IMG/VR virus record: IMGVR_UViG_3300045988_175898
DNA: 36,457 nt
Direction: 5' to 3' (one strand)
DNA from: a virus
Positions 96 through 35,961 of the stretch are shown here, piece after piece (position 1 is the stretch's first letter; each line of letters begins with the position of its first letter). A program made the position numbers and the translations under genes. Under the pieces are notes generated by a model that worked only from the letters and a program-made list of their open reading frames with translations, searched no databases and was not told the DNA's origin.

Positions 96-230
96 GGTTT
101 TGAGTTTTAAGGTTATGAGGTTATAATGTCACCTCTGCTTGCCCAAACTCTTAAAGGTTACTTTATAACCTCATAACCTCAAAACTCAAAACTCAAAACT
201 TTATAAACTTAAAACTATATCCCCACCATC
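96..230. repeat. IPE-1: intergenic palindromic element, T-type core in forward orientation, variant arms
   Basis: Core ACCTCTGCTTGCCCAAACTCTTAAAGG at 131-157. The arms are GTTTTGAGTTTTAAGGTTATGAGGTTATAA and TTATAACCTCATAACCTCAAAACTCAAAAC. They differ from the other copies but remain mutually complementary. Confidence 0.85.
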
Positions 231-530
231 ATGACAACACTCACACTCCTGCCCCTCGGCCTGCTTGCCCTCTGCCTCGCCACCGCCCTGGGCTACCAAT
301 ACGGCTGCCGCCGCACAAAGGCACAAGCCAGCGACGAACTGCGCCGCGCCACAAGCAACACACGCCTCACCGCCTACGACGAAGGCTACACCCGGGGCTA
401 CGACGACGGACACAAAGCTGGAAAAGATGAAGGCTTCAGCGACGGCCGACGCTACGAAGCCGCCACACACCACAACCAGCAAGTAATAGAGGCCGAAATA
501 GCACGACACCTCAAACACCCACGCCAATGA
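231..530 (+). CDS. hypothetical protein with N-terminal hydrophobic helix
   Basis: 99-aa ORF with N-terminus MTTLTLLPLGLLALCLATALG. It begins just after IPE-1, and its stop overlaps the next start (ATGA). Confidence 0.5.
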   Translation: MTTLTLLPLGLLALCLATALGYQYGCRRTKAQASDELRRATSNTRLTAYDEGYTRGYDDGHKAGKDEGFSDGRRYEAATHHNQQVIEAEIARHLKHPRQ

Positions 531-778
531 ACACACCCAAACTACACTCCAGCATCAGCCAGCACGACGCACTGCGCCTGCTCGAAGACGGGGAACCGCA
601 CCGCCTGCGCGTGTGGAAACTCTCAACCGGCGACATACTCACCTACGAGGGCGCACGCTGCATAGGCGGGCACAAGCGACGCGGCACACACCGCATCAGG
701 CTCCCGCAGTCGGCACTCATTCGCGAGTTCCGCGACTGCACACTCTTTGAAATAGACCATATGAGCGTATATTGGTAG
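527..778 (+). CDS. hypothetical protein
   Basis: 83-aa ORF with an ATGA overlap to the upstream ORF. It is followed directly by IPE-2. Confidence 0.5.
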   Translation: MNTPKLHSSISQHDALRLLEDGEPHRLRVWKLSTGDILTYEGARCIGGHKRRGTHRIRLPQSALIREFRDCTLFEIDHMSVYW

Positions 779-932
779 GCGAGGAGTTGAAAAGTTGAGG
801 AGTTGAAAAGTTAAGAAGTCGCTTTTAAGAGTTGGGCAAGCAGAGGTAACCTCTTAACTTTTCAACTCTTCAACTTTTCAACTTGACATTCCCCTTAACT
901 TTTCAACTCTTAAACTTATAAACTTAAAAATC
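779..932. repeat. IPE-2: T-type core in REVERSE orientation
   Basis: CTTTTAAGAGTTGGGCAAGCAGAGGT at 822-847 is the reverse complement of the canonical core. Arms are GAGTTGAAAAGTT x2 and AACTTTTCAAC x3, with TTGACATTCC at 883-892. Confidence 0.9.
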
Positions 933-2758: not shown

Positions 2759-3271
2759 ATGAAAGGCCTAACCGTATACCTCCGTCTTGAGCCATACCTG
2801 CGCCAATGGCTTACCCACCACTTTGGCAGCCCCGTGCGCTTCCCGCCACGCTCCTACGAGAATATGCTCCTCCACCGCCTGCTCTCACGCCCCGCAGCTG
2901 GAGCCACCACCGCCACGGGGCCAACCTGCCCGCCCGACAGCGTGGCAATAGTCATAACCGACCACGCCCAGCGGCGGCCCGAATACTGGTGCCACCTCTC
3001 ACGCAGGGCACAGGCCGAAATGGCACGCGCCGTGGCCAACCTCTTTTGCCTCGCCCTGTGGAGCGAGTGCGTGTGCCTCATACACAGCGGCACACTCAAC
3101 CGCGGCATCGACTCATGGTGTCAGGCCAACGGCATTGCACTCATCTACCGCGAGGGCGTAAGGCAGAAGTTTTACCGCATGCGGCGCCTTTATGCGCAGA
3201 ATGGCGTAATTCTTGGCAAAAAATATACCCACGCAAGTGGTAATAATCACACACACACCACCCACCCATGA
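2759..3271 (+). CDS. hypothetical protein (possible small terminase by position only)
   Basis: 170-aa ORF whose stop overlaps the TerL start (ATGA at 3268-3271). I recognise no motif. Confidence 0.4.
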   Translation: MKGLTVYLRLEPYLRQWLTHHFGSPVRFPPRSYENMLLHRLLSRPAAGATTATGPTCPPDSVAIVITDHAQRRPEYWCHLSRRAQAEMARAVANLFCLALWSECVCLIHSGTLNRGIDSWCQANGIALIYREGVRQKFYRMRRLYAQNGVILGKKYTHASGNNHTHTTHP

Positions 3272-4890
3272 GCACCCCCACACCCCAACAAATATACATG
3301 AACCGCATGCAGCGCGAAGTGTGCGCCATCGACGCCCACACCAACGTGATAGTGGCCGGCCGAGGCACAGGCAAAAGCATGCTGCACGCCTGGATCAACC
3401 TGCGCAACATGCAGGCCATGCCACGCAGCACCACCGCCTTTGTGTGCCCCACAGCCATCAGGGCAAAGACCAACACGCTGCCCTCAATGTTCGAGCACTG
3501 GGAGAAATGGGGCTACCGCCGCGGCCTGCACTGGGACATAGGCCACCGTCCGCCACGCTCGCTCGACTGGCCCGCGCCACTCGTCACACCCGACAACTGG
3601 GAAAACATCATCACCTTCTATAACGGTGCCATTGGCCAGATAGTGAGCCAGGACCGCGTGGGCACCTCCAACTCAAAGAGCTTTGACTACATAGACATTG
3701 ACGAAGCCAAGTTTGTAGACTACGAGCGGCTGAAGGACGAAACCTTCCCCGCCAACCGCGGGCAGCAGCGCGAGTTTGGCGACCTGCCCTTCCACCACGG
3801 CATGCTCATCACCTCCGACATGCCCGTGTCGCGGCGCGGCTCATGGTTCATGCGCTATGCCGACCAGTGCGACACCGAACTCATCAGCACCATCGAGGCC
3901 CTCGTGGCCGACGAGCAGCAAACCCTGCAGCGCATGGCACAGGGCGACACCACCCCCTACCTGCCCGAGCGCATCAAGCAAACGCGCCGCCTGCTCGCCT
4001 CGCTCCGCCGCCGCGCCACACTCTACCGCACCTACTCCAGCCTTACCAACATCGAAGTGCTGGGCGAGGCATGGGTGCGACAGATGCGGCGCGACCTCAC
4101 CCCCATGGTGTTCCGCACCTCCATACTGTGCCGCCCCGTCGAGGTGCTAAAGGACGGCTTCTACTCCTCAATGCGCCCCTCACACCGCTACACCTCCACC
4201 GACTACCATGTGGTCGACGCCCTGGGCTACGACTTCAAGGCACTCAGCAAGATGGCCGGCACATGCAAGGCCGATGCCGACATCAACCGCGGCCACCCCC
4301 TGTGCATAGCTTTCGACTACAACAACAATATCAACTGGCTCGTGGCAGGCCAGCCCGACGAGGACCGCCGACGCCTCAATGTGCTAAAATCTTTTTACGT
4401 AAAGTATGAGCGCAAACTGCCCGCCCTCATAGCCGACTTTTGCCAGTACTACGACCCGCTGCCCATGCACGAGGTGGTGTTCTACTACGACGCCACCGCC
4501 CTCGGCTCCAACTACGCCGTCAACGACCAGGACTTCCGCTGGGTAATCACCCACGAGCTGCAGCTGCACGGCTGGCGCGTGCGCCCCGTCTACATAGGCA
4601 CCCCCATGAAGCATCTTGAGAAGTACCAACTCATCAACCGCGGCTTCGACGGCAAGGCCCGGCTCATGCCATTCTTTAACGAACCCAACAACCCCGACCT
4701 GCTCATCTCCGTACAGACTGCCGGCGTGTACAACGGCAAGAAGGACAAGCGGCGCGAAAAGCTGGCCGAGACCGACGAGGACCGACTCGAAAGCCGCACC
4801 GACGGCTCCGACGCTTTCGACACCTTATATATAGGATGCGAACGTTTCCCCCAGCAGCCCGTGCAACTCGTCGTCACGGGCGGCGGCTGA
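3268..4890 (+). CDS. terL: terminase large subunit
   Basis: 540 aa. It has a Walker A-like VAGRGTGKS and a Walker B-like FDYIDIDEA. Size and position are typical of TerL. Confidence 0.8.
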   Translation: MSTPTPQQIYMNRMQREVCAIDAHTNVIVAGRGTGKSMLHAWINLRNMQAMPRSTTAFVCPTAIRAKTNTLPSMFEHWEKWGYRRGLHWDIGHRPPRSLDWPAPLVTPDNWENIITFYNGAIGQIVSQDRVGTSNSKSFDYIDIDEAKFVDYERLKDETFPANRGQQREFGDLPFHHGMLITSDMPVSRRGSWFMRYADQCDTELISTIEALVADEQQTLQRMAQGDTTPYLPERIKQTRRLLASLRRRATLYRTYSSLTNIEVLGEAWVRQMRRDLTPMVFRTSILCRPVEVLKDGFYSSMRPSHRYTSTDYHVVDALGYDFKALSKMAGTCKADADINRGHPLCIAFDYNNNINWLVAGQPDEDRRRLNVLKSFYVKYERKLPALIADFCQYYDPLPMHEVVFYYDATALGSNYAVNDQDFRWVITHELQLHGWRVRPVYIGTPMKHLEKYQLINRGFDGKARLMPFFNEPNNPDLLISVQTAGVYNGKKDKRREKLAETDEDRLESRTDGSDAFDTLYIGCERFPQQPVQLVVTGGG

Positions 4891-4926
4891 TGCCAATCAA
4901 ATAATACAAAAAAACTTATTACTCCC

Positions 4927-4957
4927 TTTGTTAATAAGCATATTATTATTATCTTTG
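4927..4957 (+). promoter_or_regulatory. Bacteroidota-type promoter TTTG-N19-TATCTTTG
   Basis: TTTG at 4927-4930 and TATCTTTG at 4950-4957, in an AT-rich island. Confidence 0.6.
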
Positions 4958-4994
4958 CAGTGTAATAAAAACAAAGAAAGGAGGTGTACAATGA

Positions 4995-5132
4995 ATGACT
5001 AAGAAAGAAAAAGTAACAGCAGCCAAAGCGATAGTAATGCTTGCAGAGTTGGCCAACACAACAAAGCACGACTACATCAAAGCCGAAGCATTAAGACTTA
5101 TCGAGGAACTCGCTGAAGCAATCGAAAGCTAA
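4995..5132 (+). CDS. small hypothetical protein (45 aa, helical), moron-like
   Basis: Hand translation gives MTKKEKVTAAKAIVMLAELANTTKHDYIKAEALRLIEELAEAIES. AGGAGG lies at 4979-4984, 10 nt upstream. The gene has its own promoter and terminator and is below the ORF-track size cutoff. Confidence 0.4.
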   Translation: MTKKEKVTAAKAIVMLAELANTTKHDYIKAEALRLIEELAEAIES

Positions 5133-5138
5133 AACAAA

Positions 5139-5166
5139 GGGCCCGCACAAGGGCGGGCCCATTTTA
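5139..5166 (+). terminator. terminator-like GC hairpin
   Basis: GGGCCCGC (5139-5146) pairs with GCGGGCCC (5153-5160), followed by ATTTTA. Confidence 0.55.
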
Positions 5167-5851: not shown

Positions 5852-6988
5852 ATGCCACGCACTTACCACATCGACATCGACTCCTACATTGGCTACCCCA
5901 TAAGCAAGGGGTACATAAAGAGCAAGCTGCAGCCCATGAAGGGCAAGCCCTGCAACGTGCGCGTCAACTCCTACGGGGGCGACGTGCAGACGGCCATCGA
6001 CATCAGACAACAATTCATTGACCACGGACAGGTCACCGCCTACATCATAGGCATGACGGCCAGCGCGGCCACCATACTGGCCATGGGTGCGCGCAAGGTG
6101 GTGATGAGCCGCTACGCGCTGATGCTTGTGCACCCCTGTTCGGCCGCCGTGAGCACTTGGGGCTACTATAACAAGGAGGAACTTGCCAAGGCCATTGAGG
6201 GGCTGCGCAAGGCTCAGACCGACCTCAAGACGCTCGACCGCGTGGTGGCCTCGATATATGCCGCCAAGGTGGGCAACGGCAATGTCGACAGCATGGCGGC
6301 CCTCATGCATGAGGCGCGATGGATAGGTGCCGAGGAGGCGCTGCGCCTTGGCCTCATTGACGAGATTGACCCCGACGAAGAGCAGCCCGACCCCGCCAAG
6401 GAGCCCATGACCGACGCACAGCGCGAGCACATTGTGGCATGCGGGCTGCCTGTGCCAACTTTCGGCATGGCGGCTGGAAGCATGGCGGCCGAAAGCACTG
6501 AGGCTGGAAGCACTGAGGGCACTGCCGCCGCCACCATCACCACCACAGCCGAACAGCAAATGCGTAAGTCGATAGGCGAGGCGGTGCGCGATTTTTTTGA
6601 AACCCTTTTTGCGCGCGCCGCCAAGCCATCTTGCACCGCCAAGCCGCAGGGCGCGGCCGCTGCCACCACCGATGACAAGCCACATAACACTAACACCCCC
6701 ATAATGAACACACAAACTCTCACCCCCGCCACCCTGTGCGCCAAGCTCGGCGTGGCACACATCACCGCCACCGACGACAAGGTGACATTCACCACCGAGC
6801 AGATTGACGCGCTCGAAAAGGTGATCAAGGCTCTGGACGATGAAAAGAATGAGGCCGAAGCCAAACTCAACGCCACCGACGGCGACACTACAAACTCTGC
6901 CAAGCCAAGCACCGAGGCCGACGAAGGCACAGCACTGCCGGGTGCCGAGGCATGCGACTTTTACCGCAAGTACGGCTCCCTCATTTAA
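5852..6988 (+). CDS. ClpP/S14-like prohead protease with C-terminal scaffold-like region
   Basis: 378 aa. VRVNSYGGDVQTAIDIRQQFIDH...GMTASAATILAMGA...LMLVH fits the ClpP-type Ser/His arrangement. The C-terminal half is Ala/Thr/Glu-rich with a predicted coiled segment. Confidence 0.75.
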   Translation: MPRTYHIDIDSYIGYPISKGYIKSKLQPMKGKPCNVRVNSYGGDVQTAIDIRQQFIDHGQVTAYIIGMTASAATILAMGARKVVMSRYALMLVHPCSAAVSTWGYYNKEELAKAIEGLRKAQTDLKTLDRVVASIYAAKVGNGNVDSMAALMHEARWIGAEEALRLGLIDEIDPDEEQPDPAKEPMTDAQREHIVACGLPVPTFGMAAGSMAAESTEAGSTEGTAAATITTTAEQQMRKSIGEAVRDFFETLFARAAKPSCTAKPQGAAAATTDDKPHNTNTPIMNTQTLTPATLCAKLGVAHITATDDKVTFTTEQIDALEKVIKALDDEKNEAEAKLNATDGDTTNSAKPSTEADEGTALPGAEACDFYRKYGSLI

Positions 6989-7033
6989 CCAACTCATCAA
7001 CTCTTAAACTCTTAAACTTCTAAACTCTACACA

Positions 7034-7999
7034 ATGGCAAAAACTATCACCACCCTCGAGGCACTGCAGAAGAGTGCCACCCGCTACGAGAAGGAACTCC
7101 TCATCATGCCGGCCACATCAGCCGGTGCCACGCTGCAGCACATGACGGGCATGCCCGGCCTGCTTGGCAACGTGGTGCTCGGCCAGCTTGACGGCGATGC
7201 CGAACTTGGCCCGTACAAGAGCACACGCTCGGACGACGGCAACTTTACCATCACCCCGCGCGAACTTGAACTTTTCCTTGGCAACTGTGCCTACGGCTTC
7301 GACCCCAACGATGTGTGGGGCACCATCTACGGCTCGCTTGTGGCCCAAGGCGAGTCGCTCAAGACGGTGGACGTGAACAAGTACATTCTCATGTTCGTGG
7401 CCGGCAAACTTGGCCGCAAGCTCAACATGGCCATCTGGGGCGCAAAGCGCAACGCCGATGGCGACACCACGAAGGACTTGTTTAACGGTTTCGACACCAT
7501 CACCGCCACCGAGGCCACTGCGGGCAACATTGCCGCAGGCAAGGGCAACTACATGGAGCTGACGGCCGCCATCGACAAGACTAACGCCATCGACACATTC
7601 AACGCCATCTACGCCGCCGCCGATGACGAGCTGCAGGGCCAGAAGGCTAAAATATATGTGTCGAAGGACATTTACAACGCCTACAACCAGAACTACCAGT
7701 TGTTGCACGGCTCGCTGCCTTACAACACGGAGTTCAAGAAAACCTTCCTCGAGGGTTCGGACAACCTGTGGGAGTTCTGCCCGCTGGCATCAAAGAAGGG
7801 CTCGCAGTACATACACATTGCCCCGCAGAGCAACATGGTGTACGGCTTCGGCGCGGGCGACAACCCCGGCGAGCGTCTGGCCATCGAAAAGTACTCGTCG
7901 TGGAAACTCACCCTCGAGGCTGCCATAGCCTTCGGCGTGCAGTTCCGAAGCCTTAGCCCCGAAATGCTCATGGTGGCCAAACTCAAGGGCGGAGAATGA
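7034..7999 (+). CDS. major capsid protein (candidate, HK97-fold by position)
   Basis: 321 aa, immediately downstream of the prohead protease. I recognise no motif with certainty. Confidence 0.6.
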   Translation: MAKTITTLEALQKSATRYEKELLIMPATSAGATLQHMTGMPGLLGNVVLGQLDGDAELGPYKSTRSDDGNFTITPRELELFLGNCAYGFDPNDVWGTIYGSLVAQGESLKTVDVNKYILMFVAGKLGRKLNMAIWGAKRNADGDTTKDLFNGFDTITATEATAGNIAAGKGNYMELTAAIDKTNAIDTFNAIYAAADDELQGQKAKIYVSKDIYNAYNQNYQLLHGSLPYNTEFKKTFLEGSDNLWEFCPLASKKGSQYIHIAPQSNMVYGFGAGDNPGERLAIEKYSSWKLTLEAAIAFGVQFRSLSPEMLMVAKLKGGE

Positions 8000-8159
8000 G
8001 TTGAAAAGTTGAAAAGTTAAGAGGTCACCTCTGCGAGTTCGACCTCTAAAACTGACCTCTTAACTCTTAAACTCTTAAACTTTTCAACTTAAATCCCTCC
8101 AAGCCTGACATTCCTCTTAACTTCTCAACTCTTAAACTCTTAAACTTAAAAAACTCCCC
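8000..8159. repeat. IPE-4: G-type core, forward
   Basis: ACCTCTGCGAGTTCGACCTCTAAAAC at 8027-8052, palindrome AGAGGTCACCTCT, and CTGACATTCCTCTTAAC at 8105-8121. Confidence 0.9.
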
Positions 8160-8780
8160 ATGGCAATACAAACCACAACCACCACCCCATGCGCCAACGG
8201 CGCCCCATTCAGCTCACTGCGCTTCTGCGCCGGCCAGCGCGTCATTCCCGGCATTCGCACCGCGGTATACTACACAGCAAAGGAAAACATCACAGCATGG
8301 CCCACCCTGCCACAGCCCTCCGACAAGGACGTGACACTGGCCAAACTCGCCACCTACGACGGCAACTTCACACTCAAGGCCGACAAGAAGTGGCAGCGCA
8401 TTGACCTCGTAACAAATAAAGGCAACGTTGAATGGGAAACTCAGGGCGAGCGCCCCTCGTGCACATTTCTCAACAAGCTTACAGCCAGCCACCCCGGCAC
8501 GGCCGAGGAGGCAGCAGGCTTTTGCTCTGTGGCGCAGAACGCCGACCTCGTGTTCCTGGTGCAGCAGCGTGACGGCAAGTTCCGCGTGCTGGGCAACGAG
8601 ATGTTCGAAACGGTGGTGAAGCCCAAAGGCTCGCTCGGCGAGGGCACAAGCACCAACGCGAGCACCGACATCGAAATCGAAGCTACCGACGTGGTGCCGG
8701 CTCCCTTCTACCCCGGCGAAATCGACACCGCCGACGATGGCAAGATCAGCGGAGCAACAGGCAAGCCGGTGGCAGCGTAG
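8160..8780 (+). CDS. hypothetical virion-module protein
   Basis: 206-aa ORF flanked by IPEs. Confidence 0.5.
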   Translation: MAIQTTTTTPCANGAPFSSLRFCAGQRVIPGIRTAVYYTAKENITAWPTLPQPSDKDVTLAKLATYDGNFTLKADKKWQRIDLVTNKGNVEWETQGERPSCTFLNKLTASHPGTAEEAAGFCSVAQNADLVFLVQQRDGKFRVLGNEMFETVVKPKGSLGEGTSTNASTDIEIEATDVVPAPFYPGEIDTADDGKISGATGKPVAA

Positions 8781-8990
8781 CCGCAGGCGGCTAAGTTGAA
8801 AAGTTTATGAGTTGAAAAGTTAAGAGGTTGCTTTAAGAGTTGAAAAGTTTATGAGTTGAAAAGTTAAGAAGTTACATCTGCTTGTCCAACTCTTAAAACC
8901 GATCGCTTAACGCTTCAACTCCTAAACTTTTCAACTCTTAAAGCGACCTCTTAACTTTTCAACTCCTAAACTTATCAACTTTTTAGTACT
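8781..8990. repeat. IPE-5: compound element (truncated reverse core remnant plus full T-type forward core)
   Basis: GTTGCTTTAAGAGTTG near 8827-8842 resembles a truncated reversed core. The full core ACATCTGCTTGTCCAACTCTTAAAAC lies at 8874-8899. There are two nested sets of arms. Confidence 0.8.
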
Positions 8991-9530: not shown

Positions 9531-9676
9531 AAAGTTTATGAGTTTAAGAGTTTAGAGGACGCCTCTGCGAGTTCAACTCTAAAAAGCGACCTCATAAACT
9601 TATCAACTTCTAAACTTCTCAACTTATAAAACCGTCCTCTTAACTTCTAAACTTTTCAACTTCTCAACTTATTAAA
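9531..9676. repeat. IPE-6: G-type core variant, forward
   Basis: GCCTCTGCGAGTTCAACTCTAAAAAG at 9561-9586. Confidence 0.85.
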
Positions 9677-11180: not shown

Positions 11181-11181
11181 C

Positions 11182-27527: not shown

Positions 27528-27531
27528 CACA

Positions 27532-27842: not shown

Positions 27843-28003
27843 CCCTCCAACCGTGCAGCCGCCACAAACCGTCCGCCCACAAAGAGCGGTGCAGCCCACA
27901 ATGAGCGGCACAACAGCCACACCACATACATCAGCCGGGGTTTTACTTTCATACGTTTCCCCTTTGACACAAGCCGCCTGCGGCTGACAGGCGCACCCAC
28001 CTG

Positions 28004-28033
28004 GCCTGGCCCCACGTGGCCAGGCTTTTTTTT
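28004..28033 (+). terminator. rho-independent terminator
   Basis: GCCTGGCC (28004-28011) pairs with GGCCAGGC (28018-28025), followed by a T8 run. Confidence 0.8.
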
Positions 28034-28039
28034 GCATAC

Positions 28040-28094
28040 GCTTGTGGTGTTTATGCGCGCACCACAAGCACCGTATACGCGCACCACAAGCACC
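28040..28094. repeat. attP left-arm repeats: GCTTGTGGTG (inverted) plus 2x GCGCACCACAAGCACC
   Basis: The 10-mer CACCACAAGC occurs at 28060-28069 and 28082-28091. Its complement lies at 28040-28049. Confidence 0.8.
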
Positions 28095-28097
28095 TTT

Positions 28098-28119
28098 TTG
28101 TGAGCATATTGTGAGCACT
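28098..28119. repeat. attP left-arm: 2 tandem 11-nt units TTGTGAGCA(T/C)(A/T)
   Basis: Units at 28098-28108 and 28109-28119. Confidence 0.85.
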
Positions 28120-28174
28120 CACGTTCAGTCACCCGCTCAACCTGTTGTATATCAATGATTTAGGCCTCCTATTT

Positions 28175-28223
28175 CCCCTGCTTTGGGAGCAGGGGGTCGT
28201 GGGTTCGAATCCCGTCGCCCCGA
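28175..28223 (+). other. attP core: 3' portion of a tRNA-Pro(UGG) gene (anticodon arm to discriminator); 5' half absent
   Basis: The anticodon stem-loop is CCTGC-TTTGGGA-GCAGG (28177-28193) with anticodon TGG. The T arm is GTGGG-TTCGAAT-CCCGT, followed by the acceptor 3' strand CGCCCCG and discriminator A. No complementary 5' acceptor or D arm lies upstream. Confidence 0.75.
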
Positions 28224-28232
28224 CATTTACTT

Positions 28233-28278
28233 AAACCGCTGATTATCAAGTAATTAAACTTGATAATCGGCGGTTTTT
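28233..28278 (+). terminator. rho-independent terminator following the tRNA fragment
   Basis: AAACCGCTGATTATCAAG (28233-28250) pairs with CTTGATAATCGGCGGTTT (28259-28276) with one G-T. The T5 run (28274-28278) overlaps the 3' end of the stem. Confidence 0.8.
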
Positions 28279-28353
28279 GCGTTGTGTTAATACTACTGCT
28301 TAAGCCTTTTTTATGGCTCATTTGGGTCTATTTTGCGATATTTTGGCGCAATT

Positions 28354-28386
28354 TTGTGAGCATATTGTGAGCATATTGTGAGCAAT
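28354..28386. repeat. attP right-arm: 3 tandem 11-nt units TTGTGAGCA(T/A)(A/T)
   Basis: Units at 28354-28364, 28365-28375 and 28376-28386, ending 35 nt before the integrase ATG. Confidence 0.85.
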
Positions 28387-28420
28387 CGGACTGCGGGACG
28401 AAATGCAATAGGAACAAAAA

Positions 28421-29713
28421 ATGGCATACAAAATAAAATGGTATCTGGATTTGAGACGCACAAGCACTGAGGGCAAAGGGCGGCTATACATGGTGATATA
28501 CAACAATGGTACGGCGGCGCAAATTGCCACCGGGCTGATGCTGCATAAGAATGAATTTGAAGCCGGCAAGGTGGTGGGCGTGCCTATGGCCGGAAAACTG
28601 ACGCAAATGCTCGGTATTAAAAGGGCTAAGCTGCAGCTTGATATTGAAGAACTTGCTGTGGGCGGGTACGAGGTGGACAAGATGAAAGCGGCGGAGATTA
28701 AAAAGGCTGTGCTGGCTAAACGCGGGAATGATGACGAGGAAGGGAACGGCGAAGGTAAAGGGACCAGGAATGAGACGGCGTTTGGCACGTTTGCCGAGAA
28801 GTTTATAGCCCGAAGGGGCAAGGAGAAAACAAGGCAGGTGTATGAAATGACGCTGCGCAAGATGGGGGGATACTGTGATGTGGGGCGCCTGAGGTTTGCG
28901 GACATCAGTGTGGGGTGGCTGCGAGACTTTGAGCAGTGGCTGGGGGCGACGTGCAGCGTGAACACGCGGGGCATTCATTTGCGCAACATTCGCGCGGTGA
29001 TGAATGCGGCTATTGATGAGGGGGTGGTGCCGGCTGACTTGTACCCTTTCAGACGGTTTAAGATTAAGAAGGAGGAGACGATGAAGCGGTCGCTCTCGGT
29101 GGGTGACTTGAGGCGGCTGAGGGATTACCCGTGTGAGGGGTGGCAGCGGAAGTATGTTGATGTGTTTATGCTGTCGTTCTACCTGGCGGGTATTAACTTG
29201 GTGGACTTGATGGGGCTGCCGCCGTTGGGGGCGGACGGTGTCATAAGGTACAGGAGGAGCAAGACGGGGGTGCTGTGCCAGCTGTCGGTGCCGCCTGAGG
29301 CCCGGGCTATTATTGAGCGTTACAAGGGGGAGCGGCATTTGCTGTGGTTTGGGGAGCGGCTGAAGCCTGGCGCGGAGGGGTGGCATGACTGGCTGCACAG
29401 GTTTAACGAGGGGTTGCAGAAGGTGGGGCCGTCGGGTTATATGTATGTGCGCCGCAAGGGGCAGTGTGGCGGCAAGCAGCGGGTGAAGGTGTATAATGCT
29501 TTGTTTCCGGAACTTACATCGTACTGGGCGCGGCACACGTGGGCTACGCTGGCGGCTGAAATTGATGTGCCTGACGCGGTGATTGATGCTGCGCTGGGGC
29601 ACAGGTCGGTGTGCCGCATGGCGGACATATACATAAGGCGTGATGCGCGCAAGGTGGACGAGGCGGTGAGGCGGGTGATTGAGTATGTGAATGGCGGGGC
29701 AGATGGGAGTTGA
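28421..29713 (+). CDS. int: tyrosine integrase (Bacteroidales phage-integrase type with N-terminal arm-binding region)
   Basis: 430 aa. The C-terminal catalytic pattern is ARHTWAT...LGHRS...ADIYIRR (R, H-x-x-R, Y). The N-terminus is KIKWYLDLRR...GRLYMVI. The gene lies adjacent to the tRNA fragment. Confidence 0.9.
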   Translation: MAYKIKWYLDLRRTSTEGKGRLYMVIYNNGTAAQIATGLMLHKNEFEAGKVVGVPMAGKLTQMLGIKRAKLQLDIEELAVGGYEVDKMKAAEIKKAVLAKRGNDDEEGNGEGKGTRNETAFGTFAEKFIARRGKEKTRQVYEMTLRKMGGYCDVGRLRFADISVGWLRDFEQWLGATCSVNTRGIHLRNIRAVMNAAIDEGVVPADLYPFRRFKIKKEETMKRSLSVGDLRRLRDYPCEGWQRKYVDVFMLSFYLAGINLVDLMGLPPLGADGVIRYRRSKTGVLCQLSVPPEARAIIERYKGERHLLWFGERLKPGAEGWHDWLHRFNEGLQKVGPSGYMYVRRKGQCGGKQRVKVYNALFPELTSYWARHTWATLAAEIDVPDAVIDAALGHRSVCRMADIYIRRDARKVDEAVRRVIEYVNGGADGS

Positions 29714-29748
29714 AAGGTAAAATATATCATACTTTTTCAAAGAAAATA

Positions 29749-29780
29749 TTTGGCAAGGAGTAAATTATTTCATACCTTGC
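29749..29780 (+). promoter_or_regulatory. candidate promoter TTTG-N20-TACCTTGC (imperfect -7)
   Basis: TTTG at 29749-29752 and TACCTTGCA at 29773-29781. The latter resembles TATCTTTGCA with one T missing. Confidence 0.35.
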
Positions 29781-29818
29781 ATTGCTAAGCACAAAGAGAA
29801 ATAATACAGAGATATAAT

Positions 29819-30220
29819 ATGGAACAGATTAAGATTAAGGTGAATTGGTGTGATAAGAATTATGCAGCGGTGTCTGATGATGAGTGCTTGCATGGTGTGG
29901 TGGTTGCCACTGCCAGGAGTTACGATGAGTTGCTTGTTGAAGTGCGCCGTGCCATAGCCGAACATGCGGGCGACATGGAGGAGGTGGCGCCGTGGGTCAA
30001 GGCTGGCGAGTATGGGTTGGACGTGGAAATGGGGGCGGCGGCCCTCATTCGTTTGGCCGAGAATTATACGTCGCTTAAAATCATATCTCGTGTGTCGGGT
30101 ATCAACCAGGCTTTGCTGACTCATTATGCCACGGGGCTTAAAGTGCCGCGCGACGGGCAACGGGCGCGCATAGTTGATGCCTTGCACGCTATTGGCGAGG
30201 CTTTGGCTGGCATGCGGTAG
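29819..30220 (+). CDS. HicB-like fold with C-terminal HTH (tentative)
   Basis: 133 aa. The N-terminal region (IKIKVNWCDKNYAAV...GVVVATARSYDELLVEVRRAIAEH) resembles HicB/UPF0150 proteins. The C-terminal region (ISRVSGINQALLTHYATGLKVP) is similar to the HTH of CDS 1678..2085. No HicA-sized partner ORF is adjacent. Confidence 0.45.
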   Translation: MEQIKIKVNWCDKNYAAVSDDECLHGVVVATARSYDELLVEVRRAIAEHAGDMEEVAPWVKAGEYGLDVEMGAAALIRLAENYTSLKIISRVSGINQALLTHYATGLKVPRDGQRARIVDALHAIGEALAGMR

Positions 30221-30332
30221 GCACATTCGCGGGCCGTCTCTTTGTTTTGACTGCTGCCCGGGGCATGCGGGCGGCATTATGGGGCTTCCCTCTGTTATGG
30301 GGGAGGCCCTTTTTTTGTGTGTTTATAAAGCG

Positions 30333-30371
30333 TTTACGCCCCTTTTGCGGTTGTGGCAAAAGGGGCGTAAA
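30333..30371. terminator. hairpin between convergent genes (bidirectional terminator candidate)
   Basis: TTTACGCCCCTTTTGC (30333-30348) pairs with GCAAAAGGGGCGTAAA (30356-30371) in a perfect 16-bp stem. Confidence 0.65.
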
Positions 30372-30405
30372 TGCGCGCGTGTATTAAACATATCATGTAT
30401 TCGTT

Positions 30406-30819
30406 TCAGCCTTTGTCGAGCAGCACCTTAATGAGGCGTTCCTTTTCGTCGAGGAGGGCGTGCAGGGCGGCATTATCTTTTTGCAGGAGTTCGATGGTGT
30501 GCTGTAGCGTTATAACCTCATTATCACTGCTTTTGGTTGTCTCTATATTGCCTGTGGAGTTTATTTGCGTTGTGTTGTGGTGGCCGCCTACTTGTATGCT
30601 GCCTTGCTCGTCGGGCAGTAGCATCTCGCCCTCGCCGGTTAGGAGCCAGTTGCCGTCGACTTGAGGGAATGCACGCTTTATTCGTTCGGGGTCGAAGGTC
30701 TTGCGGGATATCCAAGTACCAATTGTACCCTGACTTGTATTCATAGCTTTTGCGAATTTCGACTGATTTCCTTTTGCAAAAGCAATAATGAGCTGTTCTA
30801 ATTGTCCTATATCTTTCAT
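30406..30819 (-). CDS. CI-like HTH repressor
   Basis: 137 aa and the only minus-strand gene. The HTH is QSKFAKAMNTSQGTIGTWISRK, followed by NWLLTGEGEM, typical of Bacteroidales XRE-like regulators. It is divergent from the early rightward genes and has a C-terminal coiled segment. Confidence 0.7.
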   Translation of the reverse strand: MKDIGQLEQLIIAFAKGNQSKFAKAMNTSQGTIGTWISRKTFDPERIKRAFPQVDGNWLLTGEGEMLLPDEQGSIQVGGHHNTTQINSTGNIETTKSSDNEVITLQHTIELLQKDNAALHALLDEKERLIKVLLDKG

Positions 30820-30979: not shown

Positions 30980-31261
30980 ATGGAAGCAAAAAACAGGATA
31001 CTGCGCAGCATCAGCCCGACGGCCACGCTGCGCTCAATGAAGCCGGGCAGCGGCATTGAAATACCTTGCAGTGCAATGAGTTTTTCGGCGCTGATTATGG
31101 CAAAAGCCAGGTTGAACCGCCAGAGCGGGCGCAACGAGTGGCAAGTGAGAGTGAAGAAGGACGCCGCACGCGGCAAGTGCTACCTGGTGGAGCGCGCGCA
31201 GGGCGAAGTGACAAACAACAACAAACAGCAGGAGGACAACAACCATGATGACGGAGACTGA
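30980..31261 (+). CDS. hypothetical early protein
   Basis: 93 aa from the ATG at 30980. The ORF-track start at 30788 lies inside the repressor gene and promoter region. Confidence 0.4.
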   Translation: MEAKNRILRSISPTATLRSMKPGSGIEIPCSAMSFSALIMAKARLNRQSGRNEWQVRVKKDAARGKCYLVERAQGEVTNNNKQQEDNNHDDGD

Positions 31262-31445
31262 ACCCCAGGTGCCCGACACGGGGCGTTACCCCATGTGCCG
31301 TGCGGCAGAGCTGCTCGGTGTGTCGCGCTCCACCATCAAGCGATGGGTGACGAGCGGGCGCATAACCTGCGGCTGGAGCAAGGTGAACTGCAGAAAGTTC
31401 ATAACCGGTGCCGAGATTAAGCGCGTGTGGCGTGAGTACTATTAA
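31245..31445 (+). CDS. xis: excisionase-family HTH DNA-binding protein
   Basis: 66 aa. The segment MCRAAELLGVSRSTIKRWVTSGRI...KFITGAEIKRV fits the HTH_17 / AlpA-Xis pattern. Confidence 0.65.
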   Translation: MMTETEPQVPDTGRYPMCRAAELLGVSRSTIKRWVTSGRITCGWSKVNCRKFITGAEIKRVWREYY

Positions 31446-32012: not shown

Positions 32013-32318
32013 ATGGAAAGCGTAAAAATGGAGCAGAAATTTAGTGTAAAAATCAAGTACAAGCTGACAGCGGACGAGAGCTTTGCCGAGGTGGAGGTGT
32101 CGTTCGACAAGGGCAGCCATGAGTGGACGCTGGAGGCCAACTTTGTGCCGCTCGAGCAGCGCGAGTTTGTCGACGCGCTCGACCGAGCTCTGCCCTTTGA
32201 GCTGATAGTCAAGAACGGCCACGGCGGCTGCATCATTCAAGGCCCCATGCCCGAGGGCATGACACGGGCCGGGGTAATGGAGCGCATCGAGGCGGTGTTT
32301 GCCGACACGATAGTTTGA
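32013..32318 (+). CDS. hypothetical protein
   Basis: 101-aa ORF with an alternative ATG at 32028. Confidence 0.45.
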   Translation: MESVKMEQKFSVKIKYKLTADESFAEVEVSFDKGSHEWTLEANFVPLEQREFVDALDRALPFELIVKNGHGGCIIQGPMPEGMTRAGVMERIEAVFADTIV

Positions 32319-32628
32319 CGGGTGAATGGTTGACCTGTTACCCCGTCAACCGAAAAAAAATAATAGATAGGAGTTAGAAATCACACACGATGGCCGGGGG
32401 GGCTTGACGTGTATATTCTTCATCACTTTGTTTTGGTTTTTGCTTTTCCCCCGGCCATCATCAGGCTGCCGCAGTCCGCGACGGATAGCGGCAGCCACCC
32501 CGCAGGCGATAGGCCGCTAAACGGATAGGCGGCAAGAAGATAGCACGCCGGGGCCAGTCATCAGCACAGACGCTGGATAGCCCGCTTGATGGTGCCCCCC
32601 GGTCTTGAGCAACAACGTTAGGACATTA

Positions 32629-32656
32629 ACGGGTTCGACTCCCGCCGCCTGCGCCA
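32629..32656 (+). other. tRNA/tmRNA-like 3' module (T arm, acceptor 3' strand, encoded GCCA)
   Basis: ACGGG-TTCGACT-CCCGC followed by CGCCTGC-G-CCA. The exact complement GCAGGCG lies at 32502-32508. Confidence 0.4.
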
Positions 32657-32659
32657 CGC

Positions 32660-32817
32660 TTTAAGTTTGGTTCCAAGTTGATGAGTTTATGAGTTGAAAA
32701 GTTTATGTGGTCACCTCTGCAAGTTCGAACTCTTAAAAGCGACCTCTTAACTCTTCAACTCCTAAACTTATAAACTTAAAAAAACTCCAAACTCCTACTC
32801 TAACTCCAAAAGACCAT
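32660..32817. repeat. IPE-15: G-type core variant, forward
   Basis: ACCTCTGCAAGTTCGAACTCTTAAAAG at 32713-32739. Confidence 0.9.
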
Positions 32818-35727
32818 ATGATAAGAATTGAAAACCTATATCGTGCCACCAACGAGGGGCTCGATATCATACTGCACTACTACCCGCAGGCCCGCGAGGT
32901 GGTGGGCACCAAAAACAAGTTCAGGGTGCGCCCCGCCGACAAAACGCCCTCGGCCTGCCTCTACCTGTGCCACACACAGGGGGGCGAGGGTGTGTGGAAG
33001 GTTACCGACTTTGGCGATGAGGGCCACGCCCAGAGCCCGCTCGACATCTGCATGAGAGAGGAGGGCATCGACCGCCCCTATGAGGCAGTGCTCAAGCTGG
33101 CCGCCATGTTCGACGTGAGTGACGAGCTGAACCGCTCCATCAACAAGCCCGACATAAAGCACCGCCCCGCCACGGCCGACGAGAAGGACGGCACACGCAT
33201 CTTTGCCCTGCTTGAGCGCATACCCGAGGGCCACCTCAAAGTGCTTGGCCCGAGGGTGACGCACGCCGACACCGATGCGCTGCACTGGTACGAGGCGGAG
33301 TATGTGGGCTATGTCAAGAACCGCGAGGTGACGCTCAAGTACTCCACCGACAACTACCCCATATTCATGCGCGAGTGTGTGGTGGAGGAGGGCGGCGGCG
33401 AGAAGGCCGAGGTAAAGTTTTACAAAATATATGAGCCATTGAACCCCGACAAGGGTTTTCGCTTCAGCTATCACCCCGCAGGGGGCAAGCCCAAGGCCTA
33501 CATCAACGGGCTGCACGAGCTAAAGCAGCTGTGGCGCAAGCTGAACGCCGACGAGGAAGCGGCCTTTTACCGCGACCCCGCCAACGAGGGCAAGCCCTAC
33601 CGGGAGCAAAAGCTGAAGGAGGCCTTCATTTGTTCGGGCGAGCGCGACTCGCTGTGCTGCCACTCCATGGGCTACAGCCCGCTGTGGTTCAACTCCGAAA
33701 CGTACCGCCTGAGCGAGGCAGAGTACAAGGAGGTGATGAAGTATGTGGAGGTGCTCTACAACATTCCCGACCTCGACAGCACAGGCGTGCGCAAGGGGCG
33801 CGAGCTTGCGCTGCGCTTCATAGACATACACACCATGTGGCTGCCGCAGAGCCTCACGGGCTACCGCGACAACCGCGGCCGCCCGCGCAAGGACCTGCGC
33901 GACTGGCAGGAGCTGCGCGACAGGCGGAGCGACTTTGCGGGCCTGATGGCGCTGGCCATGCCTGCCAAGTTCTGGACGGAGCGCACCAACCGCAAGACGG
34001 GGGCCGTGACGTATGACATCGACACGGAGTGCCTGTACAACTTCCTCAGGCTGAACGGCTTTTACACCCTGCACGACGACAACATAAAGGAGGCGCGCTA
34101 CATACACGTGCAGGGCAACATTGTGCGCGAGGTGAAGGCCAAGGACCTGCGCCGCTTCATAAGCGAGTGGGCCGAGGAGCGGTGCCTGCCGCGTCCCGTG
34201 CGCAACCTCATTCACAACTCGCCAAGGCTGAGCGACTCGGCCCTTGACAACATGCGCGAGGTTACGCTCGACTTTACCAACTACACGCCCACCACGCAGC
34301 TGTTCTTTTTCCCCGGCAAAACGATTGAGGCCACCCCCACGGGTCTTGTGGAGCACTCAGGCGGGGAAGGTCTTGACCGCTATGTGTGGCAGGAGAATGT
34401 GCTGGAGCACCGCGTCACGCTCATGCCCCCCATGTTCGAGGTGGAGCGCAGCGTCACGCCCACGGGCGAGGCGCGCTTCGGGGTGAAGGTGATTGACAGC
34501 GAGAGCAGCCCCCTGTTTGGCTACGTAATCAACACGAGCCGCGTGCACTGGCGCAAGGAGCTGGAGTACAACTTTGCCGAGCGCGACGCCTCGGAGGCCG
34601 AAGCCTACCACCGCGCCCACAAGTTCTGCATCGACGGCGAGGGCCTCACGCCCGACGAGCGGCACGAGCAGGAGCAGAACCTTGTCAGCAAACTCTTTGC
34701 CATAGGCTACATGCTGCACCACTACAAAAGCCCCTCGCGGGCGTGGGCCCCCATGGCCATGGACAACAAGATTGGCGAGGACGGCGAGTGCAACGGCCGC
34801 AGCGGCAAGTCGTTCCTGTTCAAAGCCCTCAGCCTCTTTATGAAAACGGTGAAGCTGAGCGGCCGCAACGCCAAGTTGATGGACAACCCCCACGTGTTCG
34901 ACCAAGTGACGCAGCACACCGACTTTGTGCTGGTTGACGACTGCGACCGCCACCTCGACACGGGGGCATTTTACGACCTCATAACCTCGGACATGACCGT
35001 CAACCCCAAGAACAACCAGAGCTACACCATACCCTTTGAGCAAAGCCCGAAGTTTGGCTTTACCACCAACTATGTGCCGCGCGACTTCAGCCCCAGCACC
35101 GAGGCGCGCCTGCTTTACCTTGTGTTCAGCGACTACTACCACCAGCGCACCGAGGGCAACGACTACCTTGAGAGCCGCAGCATACGCGACGACTTCGGGC
35201 GCGACCTCATAAGCTCCTCGTACAAGGAGGAGGATTGGAACGCGGACATAAACTTCTTTATGCAGTGCTGCCAGTTCTACCTGTCGATGTGCCAGGAGAG
35301 CGTCAAGCCCATGCCGCCCATGGGCAACATACTTAAGCGCAAGTTCAAGGCCGACATGGGCACCAACTTTGAGGAATGGGCCAACGTGTACTTTGCCGAG
35401 GAGGGCGACAACCTCGACACCTTCATCGTTCGCCGCGAGGCCTACGACGCCTTTATAGACGATGCCAAGGTGAACAAGAACTTTTACACCATGAACAAGT
35501 TCACCAAGGCCTTGCGCTCCTTTGCCGCCCTCTGCCCCTACGTGTACGACTACAACCCCGCCGACTTGCTCAACTCGCAGGGCCGCATCTCGCGCCGCAT
35601 CGACGGCAAGAGCGAGGACATGATATATCTGCGCTCCACCAAGAGCCAGGCCAACCGCGAAAGCCTCGACACGGGGGCGCACCTCGACCCCGGGGCGGGA
35701 TTTGTGCCGGACGAGAGCGAAGGCTAA
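32818..35727 (+). CDS. bifunctional DNA primase (Toprim-like) / SF3-type helicase
   Basis: 969 aa. It has a Toprim-like CSGERDSLCC...NIPDLDSTG, a Walker A motif NGRSGKSF and a Walker B motif FVLVDDCD. Confidence 0.75.
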   Translation: MIRIENLYRATNEGLDIILHYYPQAREVVGTKNKFRVRPADKTPSACLYLCHTQGGEGVWKVTDFGDEGHAQSPLDICMREEGIDRPYEAVLKLAAMFDVSDELNRSINKPDIKHRPATADEKDGTRIFALLERIPEGHLKVLGPRVTHADTDALHWYEAEYVGYVKNREVTLKYSTDNYPIFMRECVVEEGGGEKAEVKFYKIYEPLNPDKGFRFSYHPAGGKPKAYINGLHELKQLWRKLNADEEAAFYRDPANEGKPYREQKLKEAFICSGERDSLCCHSMGYSPLWFNSETYRLSEAEYKEVMKYVEVLYNIPDLDSTGVRKGRELALRFIDIHTMWLPQSLTGYRDNRGRPRKDLRDWQELRDRRSDFAGLMALAMPAKFWTERTNRKTGAVTYDIDTECLYNFLRLNGFYTLHDDNIKEARYIHVQGNIVREVKAKDLRRFISEWAEERCLPRPVRNLIHNSPRLSDSALDNMREVTLDFTNYTPTTQLFFFPGKTIEATPTGLVEHSGGEGLDRYVWQENVLEHRVTLMPPMFEVERSVTPTGEARFGVKVIDSESSPLFGYVINTSRVHWRKELEYNFAERDASEAEAYHRAHKFCIDGEGLTPDERHEQEQNLVSKLFAIGYMLHHYKSPSRAWAPMAMDNKIGEDGECNGRSGKSFLFKALSLFMKTVKLSGRNAKLMDNPHVFDQVTQHTDFVLVDDCDRHLDTGAFYDLITSDMTVNPKNNQSYTIPFEQSPKFGFTTNYVPRDFSPSTEARLLYLVFSDYYHQRTEGNDYLESRSIRDDFGRDLISSSYKEEDWNADINFFMQCCQFYLSMCQESVKPMPPMGNILKRKFKADMGTNFEEWANVYFAEEGDNLDTFIVRREAYDAFIDDAKVNKNFYTMNKFTKALRSFAALCPYVYDYNPADLLNSQGRISRRIDGKSEDMIYLRSTKSQANRESLDTGAHLDPGAGFVPDESEG

Positions 35728-35961
35728 AAGATTCAAGTTGAAGAGTTTAGGAGTTGAAAAGTCAAGATACGAGTTGAAAAGTTCAAGAGTTGAAAAGCTA
35801 AGAGGTTACCTCTGCTTGTCCAACTCTTAAAAGCGACCGCTGAACTCTTCAACTCATCAACTTTTCAACTTGACATTCCAACTTTTCAACTTGACATTCC
35901 TCTTAACTTTTCAACTCATCAACTTTTCAACTTATAAACTCCTAAACTTATAAACTTAAAA
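35728..35961. repeat. IPE-16: T-type core, forward
   Basis: ACCTCTGCTTGTCCAACTCTTAAAAG at 35808-35833. TTGACATTCC occurs twice (35870-35879 and 35891-35900) and CTTATAAACT occurs twice. Confidence 0.9.

Follow-up and report, generated by a model that had tools for sequence, protein, structure and literature searches.

Composite palindromic mosaic repeats at the gene junctions of a temperate gut phage

IMG/VR virus record IMGVR_UViG_3300045988_175898, whose whole stretch of 36,457 nucleotides we call the window, is a temperate gut phage of the host clade Prevotellaceae: a siphovirus genome of ~36.4 kb with ~56% G+C and a coding strand that is G-poor throughout. Its first 55 bases recur at its end (1–55 / 36400–36457), and the window is therefore complete and circularly assembled. 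Fifteen of its gene junctions carry a full composite palindromic element, made of a left arm of tandem units, a core and a right arm of complementary units. The 14 full-element junctions total 2,666 nt, with the variant copy at 96–230 in addition, such that one repeat family fills 7–8% of the genome, in line with the ~7% given in an initial annotation of the sequence. Here we show that these elements change much faster than genes yet keep a family consensus, that gene cassettes are swapped exactly between two copies, and that the family is spread over unrelated phage genomes of one host clade.

Annotation of the window proteins with PHROGs and Pfam identifies a large terminase (3268–4890), a head maturation protease (5852–6988), an HU-HIG protein (10770–11180), an amidase (13363–13788), a tape measure protein of 1,403 amino acids (21085–25296), a tyrosine integrase on the + strand (28421–29713) and a CI-like repressor on the − strand (30406–30819); helix–turn–helix proteins are encoded at 1678–2085 and 31245–31445. 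A putative small terminase gene (2759–3271), a capsid-like gene (7034–7999) and a gene encoding 969 amino acids (32818–35727) also adjoin elements. No close DNA-level GenBank phage was found by megablast or blastn of the whole genome, and the capsid protein matches GenBank phages at ~24% identity at best; the phage is thus without a cultured relative. A tRNA scan of the window found nothing.

Composite elements between stop and start codons

The octamer ACCTCTGC, around which the family had been described, is present in 13 exact copies (12 on the + strand and one on the − strand, at 840–847) against 1.37 expected, a count reached by 0 of 100 shuffles, and its reported one-nucleotide variants, ACATCTGC at 8874 and GCCTCTGC at 9561, are also there. 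The two-unit arm pattern AGTTNANNAGTTNA matches 126 times against 0.01 expected, always in gene junctions, 46 times in left-arm and 80 times in right-arm orientation. The arms are strict arrays of 8-nt units, AGTTNANN on the left and NNTNAACT on the right, rather than of the ~16-nt unit first proposed. The window holds 66 left and 105 right units in arrays of 2–14 units, and AGTTGAAA accounts for 44% of the left and 19% of the right units. A right module consists of a head, (A/T)CCTCTTAAC, followed by 2–5 units and a tail, TTAAAA(GCG); in full it can be written as ACCTCTTAAC, then 8-nt NNTNAACT units, then TTAAAA(GCG), with the reverse complement on the left.

The cores, ACCTCT-GCTTGYC-CAACTCTTAAAAGCG, divide into eight of TTG type and seven of GAG type, exactly as first listed. 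The core is best read as one diverged right-arm module, which places the dyad axis at AGAGGT-N-ACCTCT; the palindrome earlier noted at the arm/core junction is present there as a perfect 13-bp dyad, AGAGGTNACCTCT. Modules on the right invariably outnumber those on the left by one or more, the surplus always lies on the ATG side, and core orientation relative to transcription is strongly biased (14:1 in the window and 12:1 in contig 175129 of a second phage lineage, 26:2 combined).

The right arrays hold no G, and 0 of 26 contain an ATG, GTG or TTG. Positions −30 to −1 of element-preceded genes have 1% G, compared with 13.5% in other genes, and the mean pairing probability is 0.29 in the initiation region and 0.60 in the rest of the junction. 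Compared with other genes, they show no enrichment of adenine at −3, −6, −12 and −13, and 8 of 17 leaders end in a C-run. Such a run (for example, CCCCTCCCCC, with an anti-Shine–Dalgarno-like CCTCC core) abuts the ATG in about half of the genes that follow an element, occupying the 10–15 nt before the ATGs at 2759, 8160, 10770, 11458, 13363, 15694 and 18704, where A-rich sequence is expected in Bacteroidota. Several motifs may resemble well-known signals, likenesses to which no weight is given here: TAAGAGGT and ACCTCTTAA may resemble Shine–Dalgarno and anti-Shine–Dalgarno sequences, CCTCTTAAC boxA, TTAACTTTT the T7 epsilon enhancer and ATCAACNNNNTAA the IHF consensus.

Copies sit between the stop codon and the next start codon of co-directional genes. 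In the 14 scored copies of the window, of which 11 are scorable on the left side, the distance from the end of the upstream stop codon to the start of the first left unit ranges from −14 to +30 nt, and 5–41 nt separate the last right unit from the ATG; for all 56 scorable elements of the fetched loci, the median distances are 2 nt from stop codon to left unit and 16 nt from right unit to ATG. Of the 25 co-directional gaps of at least 40 nt, 14 contain a full element, two contain a right array only (6997–7026 and 11418–11447, where the initial annotation counted a single core-less copy) and nine are filled by ordinary Bacteroidota promoters, T-run terminators or other sequence; the wrap-around junction supplies the fifteenth full element. 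The view that almost every non-overlapping junction is occupied does not therefore hold across the genome, but it does in the head–tail operon (5852–20661), in which elements occupy 13 of 13 gaps of at least 40 nt.

All copies are given here as they stand on the + strand. Element 1 (96–230) spans the wrap-around junction, after the gene at 35962–36390 and before that at 231–530; its TTG-type core (131–156) is that of the family, and its 38-nt arms, 92% complementary, are built from different units, AGGTTATG and CATAACCT. Element 2 (779–932) has the only inverted core in the window (ACCTCTGC on the − strand, 840–847) between a left array at 785–816 and right arrays at 854–924, the latter including a TTGACATTCC head. 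Element 3 (2636–2758; GAG-type core at 2673) lies upstream of the small terminase gene. The first of the right-array-only copies (6989–7033) has four units at 6997–7026 upstream of the capsid-like gene, without left arm or core.

Element 4 (8000–8159; GAG-type core at 8027) follows the capsid-like gene with three left and eight right units, one left unit overlapping the stop codon at 7999 and the second right module being headed by CTGACATTCCTCTTAAC. Element 5 (8781–8990) is a nested double palindrome, with two left modules, the core ACATCTGC at 8874 and two right modules, and is predicted to form a 79-bp hairpin of −102 kcal/mol, compared with −36 in shuffles. Element 6 (9531–9676) has the GAG-type core GCCTCTGC at 9561, and element 7 (10654–10769; TTG-type core at 10692) precedes the HU-HIG gene. 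At 11401–11457, upstream of the gene at 11458–12834 and after an unrelated palindrome with 47-bp arms, lies the second reduced copy, consisting of a half-core (CTCTAAAAGCGACCTCTTAAC) and a right array only.

Element 8 (12815–12935; TTG-type core at 12857) has a left array that begins within the open reading frame 11458–12834, the stop codon of which falls in the third unit. Element 9 (13188–13362; TTG-type core at 13238) lies upstream of the amidase gene, and element 10 (14268–14437; TTG-type core at 14322) has two right modules. Element 11 (15521–15693) has a GAG-type core at 15556. Elements 12 (18540–18703; GAG-type core at 18577) and 13 (19490–19730; GAG-type core at 19564) form the left and right borders of a variable cassette at 18704–19489, element 13 being the largest copy, with 251 nt as folded (19480–19730). 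The gene at 32818–35727 is preceded by element 14 (32670–32817), with the core variant ACCTCTGCAAG at 32713, and followed by element 15 (35728–35961), with a TTG-type core at 35808, six left and twelve right units and two TTGACATTCC heads.

Elements evolve in concert and join exchanged cassettes

Scanning IMG/VR with the core identified relatives, including nine contigs 85–93% identical to the window. Every element junction of the window is also occupied in relatives, and orthologous elements differ in unit number, length (94–246 nt at one junction, that of element 6), core subtype and core orientation. Orthologues of element 4 have an inverted core of TTG type, and the core of element 11 is inverted in three relatives (L006, L011 and L070). 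Junction identity is 72%, compared with 93% in the 300-nt coding flanks, and is the lower of the two in 45 of 49 comparisons. Elements thus change much faster than genes yet keep the family consensus, that is, they undergo concerted evolution. The right array is kept at every orthologous junction compared (at 6989–7033, in four of four relatives); at junction 14267, the site of element 10, three relatives keep only the head and right array, the left arm and core being gone.

Genes between elements come and go. The gene at 18704–19489, bounded by elements 12 and 13, is missing from L006, in which one chimeric element joins the neighbours, and is replaced in L004 by a different, reverse-oriented cassette. 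Gene cassettes are therefore swapped exactly between two copies, and the elements serve as recombination joints; the early suggestion that they promote recombination at module boundaries is supported as a consequence of the repeats, by this one cassette.

The family extends well beyond these relatives, into lineages whose sequences were compared with the window proteins by tblastn. In the second lineage, 31.9 kb of contig 175129 were recovered; they contain 14 elements built on the same core (12 forward, one inverted) and homologues of only 8 of the 42 window proteins. A third lineage (contigs 119370, 090724, 064330 and 087279; G+C 48–50%) has a few copies of the same core, and its genes have no homologues among the window proteins except for one short match of 39 residues. 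At one site of lineage 3, the element is full in L041 and L061, partial with an inverted core in L025 and empty in L051, with flanks ~98% identical and no target-site duplication. Among 185,579 species-representative genomes, the arm–core pattern is real only in a prophage of Prevotellamassilia timonensis; two further genome hits lie within genes and are due to chance.

A scan for four consecutive units further revealed sister flavours in other gut-phage contigs, which have the same layout with other units and other cores: units AGTTGACG / AGTTAACA with an 8-nt period, and AGTTTAATR units with a 9-nt period. Two flavours can share one genome. At a single junction of one sister flavour, the element measures 0 (seven contigs), 45, 77 (without core), 109, 127–170 or 236 nt, between flanks that are 93–99% identical. 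This range from empty to full at single junctions means that individual copies are dispensable, and they behave like palindromic minisatellites. The family is shared by unrelated phage genomes of one host clade.

Predicted hairpins and competing explanations

Stems of 30–79 pairs are predicted for 14 of the 15 copies, with energies of −31 to −102 kcal/mol and z-scores against shuffles that reach −10.6, −7.7, −6.2 and −4.9 (elements 1, 3, 7 and 14, respectively). The initial annotation had the arms pairing as stems, which is borne out in prediction for most copies and fails for that at 12815–12935. Its exclusion of ordinary terminators stands: the window scan finds no strong T-run terminator in any element, the strong terminator-like sites being at 2134, 5139, 5544, 28003 and 30281, and the only weak score within elements comes from the 5-bp dyad of AGAGGTNACCTCT followed by TAACTTTTCA, mostly on the antisense strand. 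The absence of TTTG and TAnnTTTG boxes likewise holds for the elements, since right arrays without G have no TTTG, but not for the rest of the window, in which canonical Bacteroidota boxes (−33 TTTG and −7 TAnnTTTG) are seen by eye at ~4930–4965, ~5815, ~20725 and ~27335, all outside elements. In 1.17 Mb, the 40 nt upstream of right arrays never include a −7 box, and matches of sigma-70 type show no enrichment (7 where 6.9 are expected, and 12 where 8.8 are). A sigma-70-type promoter in the TTGACATTCC heads was rejected on the same lack of enrichment and on a TATAAA spacing of ~36 nt; a right array serving as the 5′ untranslated region of a canonical promoter (L079, 1044–1084) was rejected because the repeat there has a 7-nt period.

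We put the probability at about 0.45 that the elements are a composite of hypervariable, concertedly evolving, interspersed palindromic mosaic repeats that would yield a co-transcribed hairpin and G-free leader and double as a recombination joint. From the transcription-linked core orientation, the ATG-side surplus, the kept right arrays and the co-directional operons, we infer that the transcript is where the elements would act, if they act at all. Copies would spread without a dedicated transposase, through slippage, through recombination or gene conversion with one another and through loop inversion mediated by the arms. When an element is transcribed within a long operon, its left and right arrays would pair generically, because any left unit pairs with any right unit, and a long imperfect hairpin would form immediately after the stop codon; the surplus right modules would stay as a G-free, start-codon-free, poorly structured leader before the next ATG. 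The most likely effect would be punctuation of polycistronic mRNA. The hairpin may offer both a double-stranded substrate for RNase III and a 3′ protective structure, and may uncouple or tune translation of adjacent cistrons in a host without Shine–Dalgarno pairing. Repeated copies would supply the homology for cassette exchange, and sequence conservation would come from many-to-many pairing and concerted evolution, not from selection on element-specific base pairs. The element leaders fit the rules of initiation in Bacteroidetes, namely low structure and AUG depletion near the start (PMC6847099).

A number of observations weigh against this composite explanation. The covariance check that the initial annotation set out for a functional RNA came out negative: in 37 distinct inner hairpins compared with 500 shuffles, 86.6% of cells are paired against 87.1% when shuffled, with no compensatory change, the covariation score is 0.052 against 0.058 (424 of 500 shuffles score as high), and a separate permutation test agrees (0.548 against 0.575, no covariation). 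Sixteen of 27 pairs are invariant (AGTT.A / T.AACT) and the remaining pairs do not covary. Since pairing is no better than in shuffles, the arms of one element complement those of any other equally well; arm pairing is generic and carried by the invariant AGTT.A / T.AACT. The copy at 12815–12935, otherwise typical, has no stable sense-strand hairpin (z = −0.1), and in 45 of 48 junction sequences the antisense strand gives the more stable fold, with a mean advantage of 10.6 kcal/mol (Wilcoxon p = 5e-9), because arm mismatches are more often A:C or C:A (67) than G:T or T:G (30). Three junctions tolerate an inverted core, which speaks against an RNA loop of specific sequence. Taken together, the lack of covariation, the excess of A:C mismatches, the copy that does not fold and the tolerance of inversion leave no positive evidence that an RNA structure is under selection. 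The invariance of AGTT.A across flavours could also mean recognition by a protein, and in a DNA-level reading a protein would recognize AGTT.A or the dyad. One lineage 3 copy lies at a convergent junction, before a terminator and with no downstream gene. In sister flavours the right arrays do contain G, and the period of one is 9 nt, such that a leader free of G is not a rule of the superfamily. Genes beside empty sites look intact, and any function would accordingly be modulatory at most.

The same evidence bears on narrower explanations. Dedicated RNA-processing or stabilizing hairpins under direct selection, cleaved like T7 RNase III sites to leave a protective 3′ hairpin, would account for the long predicted stems (z to −10.6), the placement directly after stop codons within long operons and the strong bias of core orientation relative to transcription; stems of 30–79 pairs would suit RNase III as substrates. 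We nonetheless doubt this explanation, as direct selection on a hairpin sits poorly with the lack of covariation, the excess of A:C over G:U mismatches together with the lower stability of the sense strand in 45 of 48 junctions, a copy without a fold, the tolerated core inversions and the close relatives in which copies are dispensable or reduced to right arrays.

In another explanation, the right arrays would be the functional part, a G-free, unstructured leader without start codons that serves as a ribosome standby or re-initiation track for translation of internal cistrons independent of Shine–Dalgarno sequences, with left arms and cores accessory or a by-product. The right array is kept at every orthologous junction compared, even where left arms and cores are lost, stands alone upstream of the genes at 7034 and 11458, and has the expected composition (no start codon in 26 arrays, 1% G from −30 to −1, low pairing in the initiation region), in agreement with the Bacteroidetes initiation rules (PMC6847099). 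It is unlikely all the same: the leaders show no enrichment of A at −3, −6, −12 and −13 and end in a C-run in 8 of 17 cases, the right arrays of sister flavours contain both G and TTG, in the flavour-B lineage the gene downstream of the empty site manages without an array, on a purine-rich leader of its own, a search of 1.17 Mb turned up no right array behind a canonical promoter, and both the conserved AACT unit and the core are left unexplained. It is similarly unlikely that the elements form an intercistronic expression device of Bacteroidota phages, in which a hairpin at the stop codon would lead into a track free of G and of start codons, along which terminating or standby ribosomes would reach the next AUG without Shine–Dalgarno pairing, rapid turnover of 8-nt units would serve as a heritable rheostat for virion protein stoichiometry, and shared modules would allow plug-and-play swapping of cassettes.

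The 8-bp units, the AGAGGTNACCTCT dyad or the core could be double-stranded DNA sites for a phage protein, either an IHF-like HU-HIG pair or a stoperator-like repressor, by which the genome would be organized, silenced or packaged. AGTT.A is invariant in every unit of all flavours as other positions drift, the dyad at the arm/core junction is a perfect 13 bp, and a tolerated core inversion is what a double-stranded site would lead one to expect; IHF sites occur inside REP-type and Correia repeats. The HU-HIG gene itself lies among the elements, and six relatives (L008, L011, L003, L014, L044 and L068) have two tandem HU-HIG paralogues, like heterodimeric IHF. The window gene (10770–11180) is a chimera of the N-terminal half of one paralogue and the C-terminal half of the other, and L010 encodes a 186-amino-acid HU fusion. 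Of the proteins common to lineages 1 and 2, HU-HIG is also the best conserved; a 285-nt tract within its gene, over the 5′ half, is 90% identical in nucleotides, which points to recent exchange between the two lineages. An HU profile scan, moreover, matches 38 viral loci, many without arrays within 10 kb, and lineage 3, which has elements, is not among its matches. HU-HIG as obligatory partner was rejected on these three grounds (a recent recombinant tract, HU phages without arrays and a lineage without detectable HU); co-occurrence gives no support to the HU-binding role once suggested, and no other DNA- or RNA-binding protein common to all carriers was found. With 8-nt and 9-nt periods coexisting, the ATG-side asymmetry and the 26:2 bias of core orientation unexplained, and a 29–39-nt spacer that probably makes cruciform extrusion unlikely, we consider a double-stranded site quite improbable.

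Least probable, in our estimate, are purely selfish, non-autonomous transposable elements of MITE (miniature inverted-repeat transposable element) or REPIN type, mobilized in trans by a host or phage transposase and useless to the phage. Presence/absence polymorphism between near-identical flanks, the same element in otherwise unrelated phages and inverted terminal arms (18–79 bp, arrays of generic units rather than unique termini) all have the look of a MITE, and an automated survey reports unnamed ‘vMITEs’ in Prevotella phages (PMC11602168). The part of the original MITE suggestion that stands is the empty and partial sites in near-identical genomes. Against mobilization, no target-site duplication is seen at the one clean site (L041, occupied, compared with L051, empty), and no transposase or RAYT-like gene was found among the window proteins with PHROGs and Pfam, host genomes not having been searched. 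Outside phages there is a single prophage hit in 185,579 genomes, none of the element junctions is empty in the examined relatives of lineages 1 and 2, graded lengths at one site look like slippage and not cut-and-paste, and a load of 7–8% in a size-limited capsid would argue against pure parasitism.

Genome context and known systems

Other sequences of the window deserve mention beside the elements. Junction elements of a second type are built from 22-nt direct repeats (AGAGAAAAAACAGTTACGGGAG two to three times; AGCAAAAACAGTTGTGCC twice) followed by one inverted arm, and occur at window positions 1–75 plus 36400–36457 and 11179–11244, after the HU gene in L011 and L006, and in L014. On the antisense strand each copy reads as a hairpin and then a T-run, which amounts to tandem terminators pointed into the + operons; in relatives the other arm is present as five tandem copies. 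A G+C-rich palindrome at 11266–11400, between the HU gene and the gene at 11458, has 47-nt arms that are 98% complementary, and a related ~90-nt palindrome (TGGGGGCGACGCGTCCCGCG...CGCGGGACGCGTCGCCCCCA) directly follows the stop codon TAATGGGGGCG at junction 14267 in L070 and L010 and is absent from the window; together they look like a second, unrelated mobile palindrome. Directly before the tape-measure start, at 21040–21084, a strong hairpin with a T8 run (GTGTTACTTTTGG...CCAAAAGTAACAC TTTTTTTT) sits where tail-chaperone frameshifting is expected and is a candidate terminator or frameshift stimulator.

The early region contains a DUF4160 / DUF2442-HTH gene pair (1397–2085), of a kind often met as toxin–antitoxin-like modules. 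TGTATCA/TGATACA occurs 11 times in the window against 2.3 expected, with 9 of the 11 copies clustered at 2250–2525 in both orientations; the cluster occupies a 388-nt gap and a small open reading frame upstream of the terminase genes and is probably a packaging site (pac, or small-terminase binding) or an origin. An AT-rich moron at 4900–5165 holds a 45-amino-acid open reading frame (4995–5132) with its own canonical Bacteroidota promoter (TTTG...TATCTTTG) and a Shine–Dalgarno-like AAAGGAGGTG, unusual in Bacteroidota, as well as a bidirectional terminator at 5139–5160. GC skew turns positive over 28000–30800, the integrase–repressor region, despite the + strand integrase gene, which suggests a module of different origin. 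A non-coding stretch of ~350 nt (32320–32665) ends in GGGTTCGACTCCCGCCGCCTGCGCCA, which resembles the 3′ end of the tmRNA model (positions 348–362, E = 0.003, below the gathering score) and may be the attP core at which the phage integrates into ssrA or a tRNA gene, though the integrase is 3 kb off.

The initial annotation recognized no described phage element in these repeats, and our searches concur. No Rfam family matches anywhere in the window at gathering-score or E-value thresholds; at 32250–32830, only sub-threshold chance matches to plant and animal microRNA precursors fall over the palindrome. A blastn search of two elements against 50,697 GenBank phage records gave no match, to which the low-complexity filter may contribute, and literature searches by motif string and by description found no account of the elements. 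The survey that reported vMITEs may have counted such elements (PMC11602168).

As a marker, the repeat family links phage lineages with a common host, and cassettes bounded by repeats make one mechanism of mosaic gene exchange visible. The elements may also open a window on punctuation and translation of long polycistronic messages in a phylum without Shine–Dalgarno use, and sister flavours are found in other uncultivated gut Bacteroidales phages. Because one carrier is a prophage of the cultured Prevotellamassilia timonensis Marseille-P2831 (contig NZ_LT629841.1), these questions are experimentally testable. In practice, the repeats will break short-read assemblies, mislead MITE finders and inflate the apparent divergence of closely related gut phages.

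Several known systems invite comparison. The PeSL cassettes of the T4-type phages RB49 and phi1 are stem-loops that flank variable genes and allow modular shuffling by recombination, each being a strong sigma-70-type promoter with an effective terminator in hyperplastic early regions (PMC2839356); circular by-products of cassettes are seen for PeSLs. The likeness lies in a cassette gained, lost or replaced exactly between two elements; the elements here have no promoter consensus (sigma-70 or TAnnTTTG) and no T-run, and lie in late structural operons. CRISPR arrays offer no parallel, as first noted, since the units abut without spacers and form inverted blocks at gene junctions.

Among phage systems, T7 has RNase III sites at about ten gene junctions, each a hairpin of ~50 nt whose internal loop is defined and whose sequence is stable. 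The shared trait is hairpins, here predicted, at many junctions of a long phage transcript, but the elements of the window are 100–250 nt long, modular, hypervariable and without covariation. The stoperators of Cluster A and the SAS/ESAS of Cluster K mycobacteriophages are single sites of 13–17 bp, stoperators being asymmetric and repressor-bound and SAS lying a few bases upstream of start codons. These too are short conserved motifs at many intergenic sites of a temperate phage, oriented with transcription; by contrast, the window has about 170 units in arrays of both orientations around a core.

Bacterial repeats come closer. REP/BIME and REPIN elements of Enterobacteria and Pseudomonas are intergenic, usually transcribed, imperfect palindromes with mosaic structure and alternating orientation, and REP/BIME follow stop codons in operons, with proposed roles in mRNA stabilization and in IHF or gyrase binding. 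The elements of the window share with them many copies per genome, mosaic motifs, concerted evolution and junction placement, and differ in sequence, in lacking a nearby RAYT transposase and a GTAG foot (the REP/REPIN layout of a ~35-bp palindrome with a 5′ GTAG foot is missing from arm and core sequences alike), and in having arms of tandem 8-nt units in place of a single ~35-bp palindrome. They are phage-borne at about one copy per 2 kb, and in bacteria are found only within a prophage. Correia (NEMIS) elements of Neisseria are chromosomal, with 26-bp terminal repeats, a TA duplication, hairpins cut by RNase III and a central IHF site; they are likewise intergenic inverted repeats of 100–160 bp with presence/absence polymorphism, co-transcribed in Neisseria, but the arms here are unit arrays and no duplication is seen. 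BOX elements of Streptococcus pneumoniae (boxA–boxB(n)–boxC) are chromosomal, with modules of 45–59 bp, and resemble ours as modular intergenic repeats with a variable number of internal tandem modules and stable predicted hairpins; ours have 8-nt units and unrelated sequence and are phage-borne, and we know of no inverted-core polymorphism described for BOX.

High copy number, concerted evolution, spread, dispensability and use as recombination joints are hallmarks of REP/BIME, BOX and Correia repeats, and the elements may be regarded, by analogy and with their role unproven, as a phage counterpart of bacterial REP/BOX-type repeats. To our knowledge, no other phage genome has been described with 7–8% of its length in one such repeat family filling every gap of a 15-kb structural operon; the family stands out by its density in a phage, its construction from 8-nt units and its superfamily of flavours.

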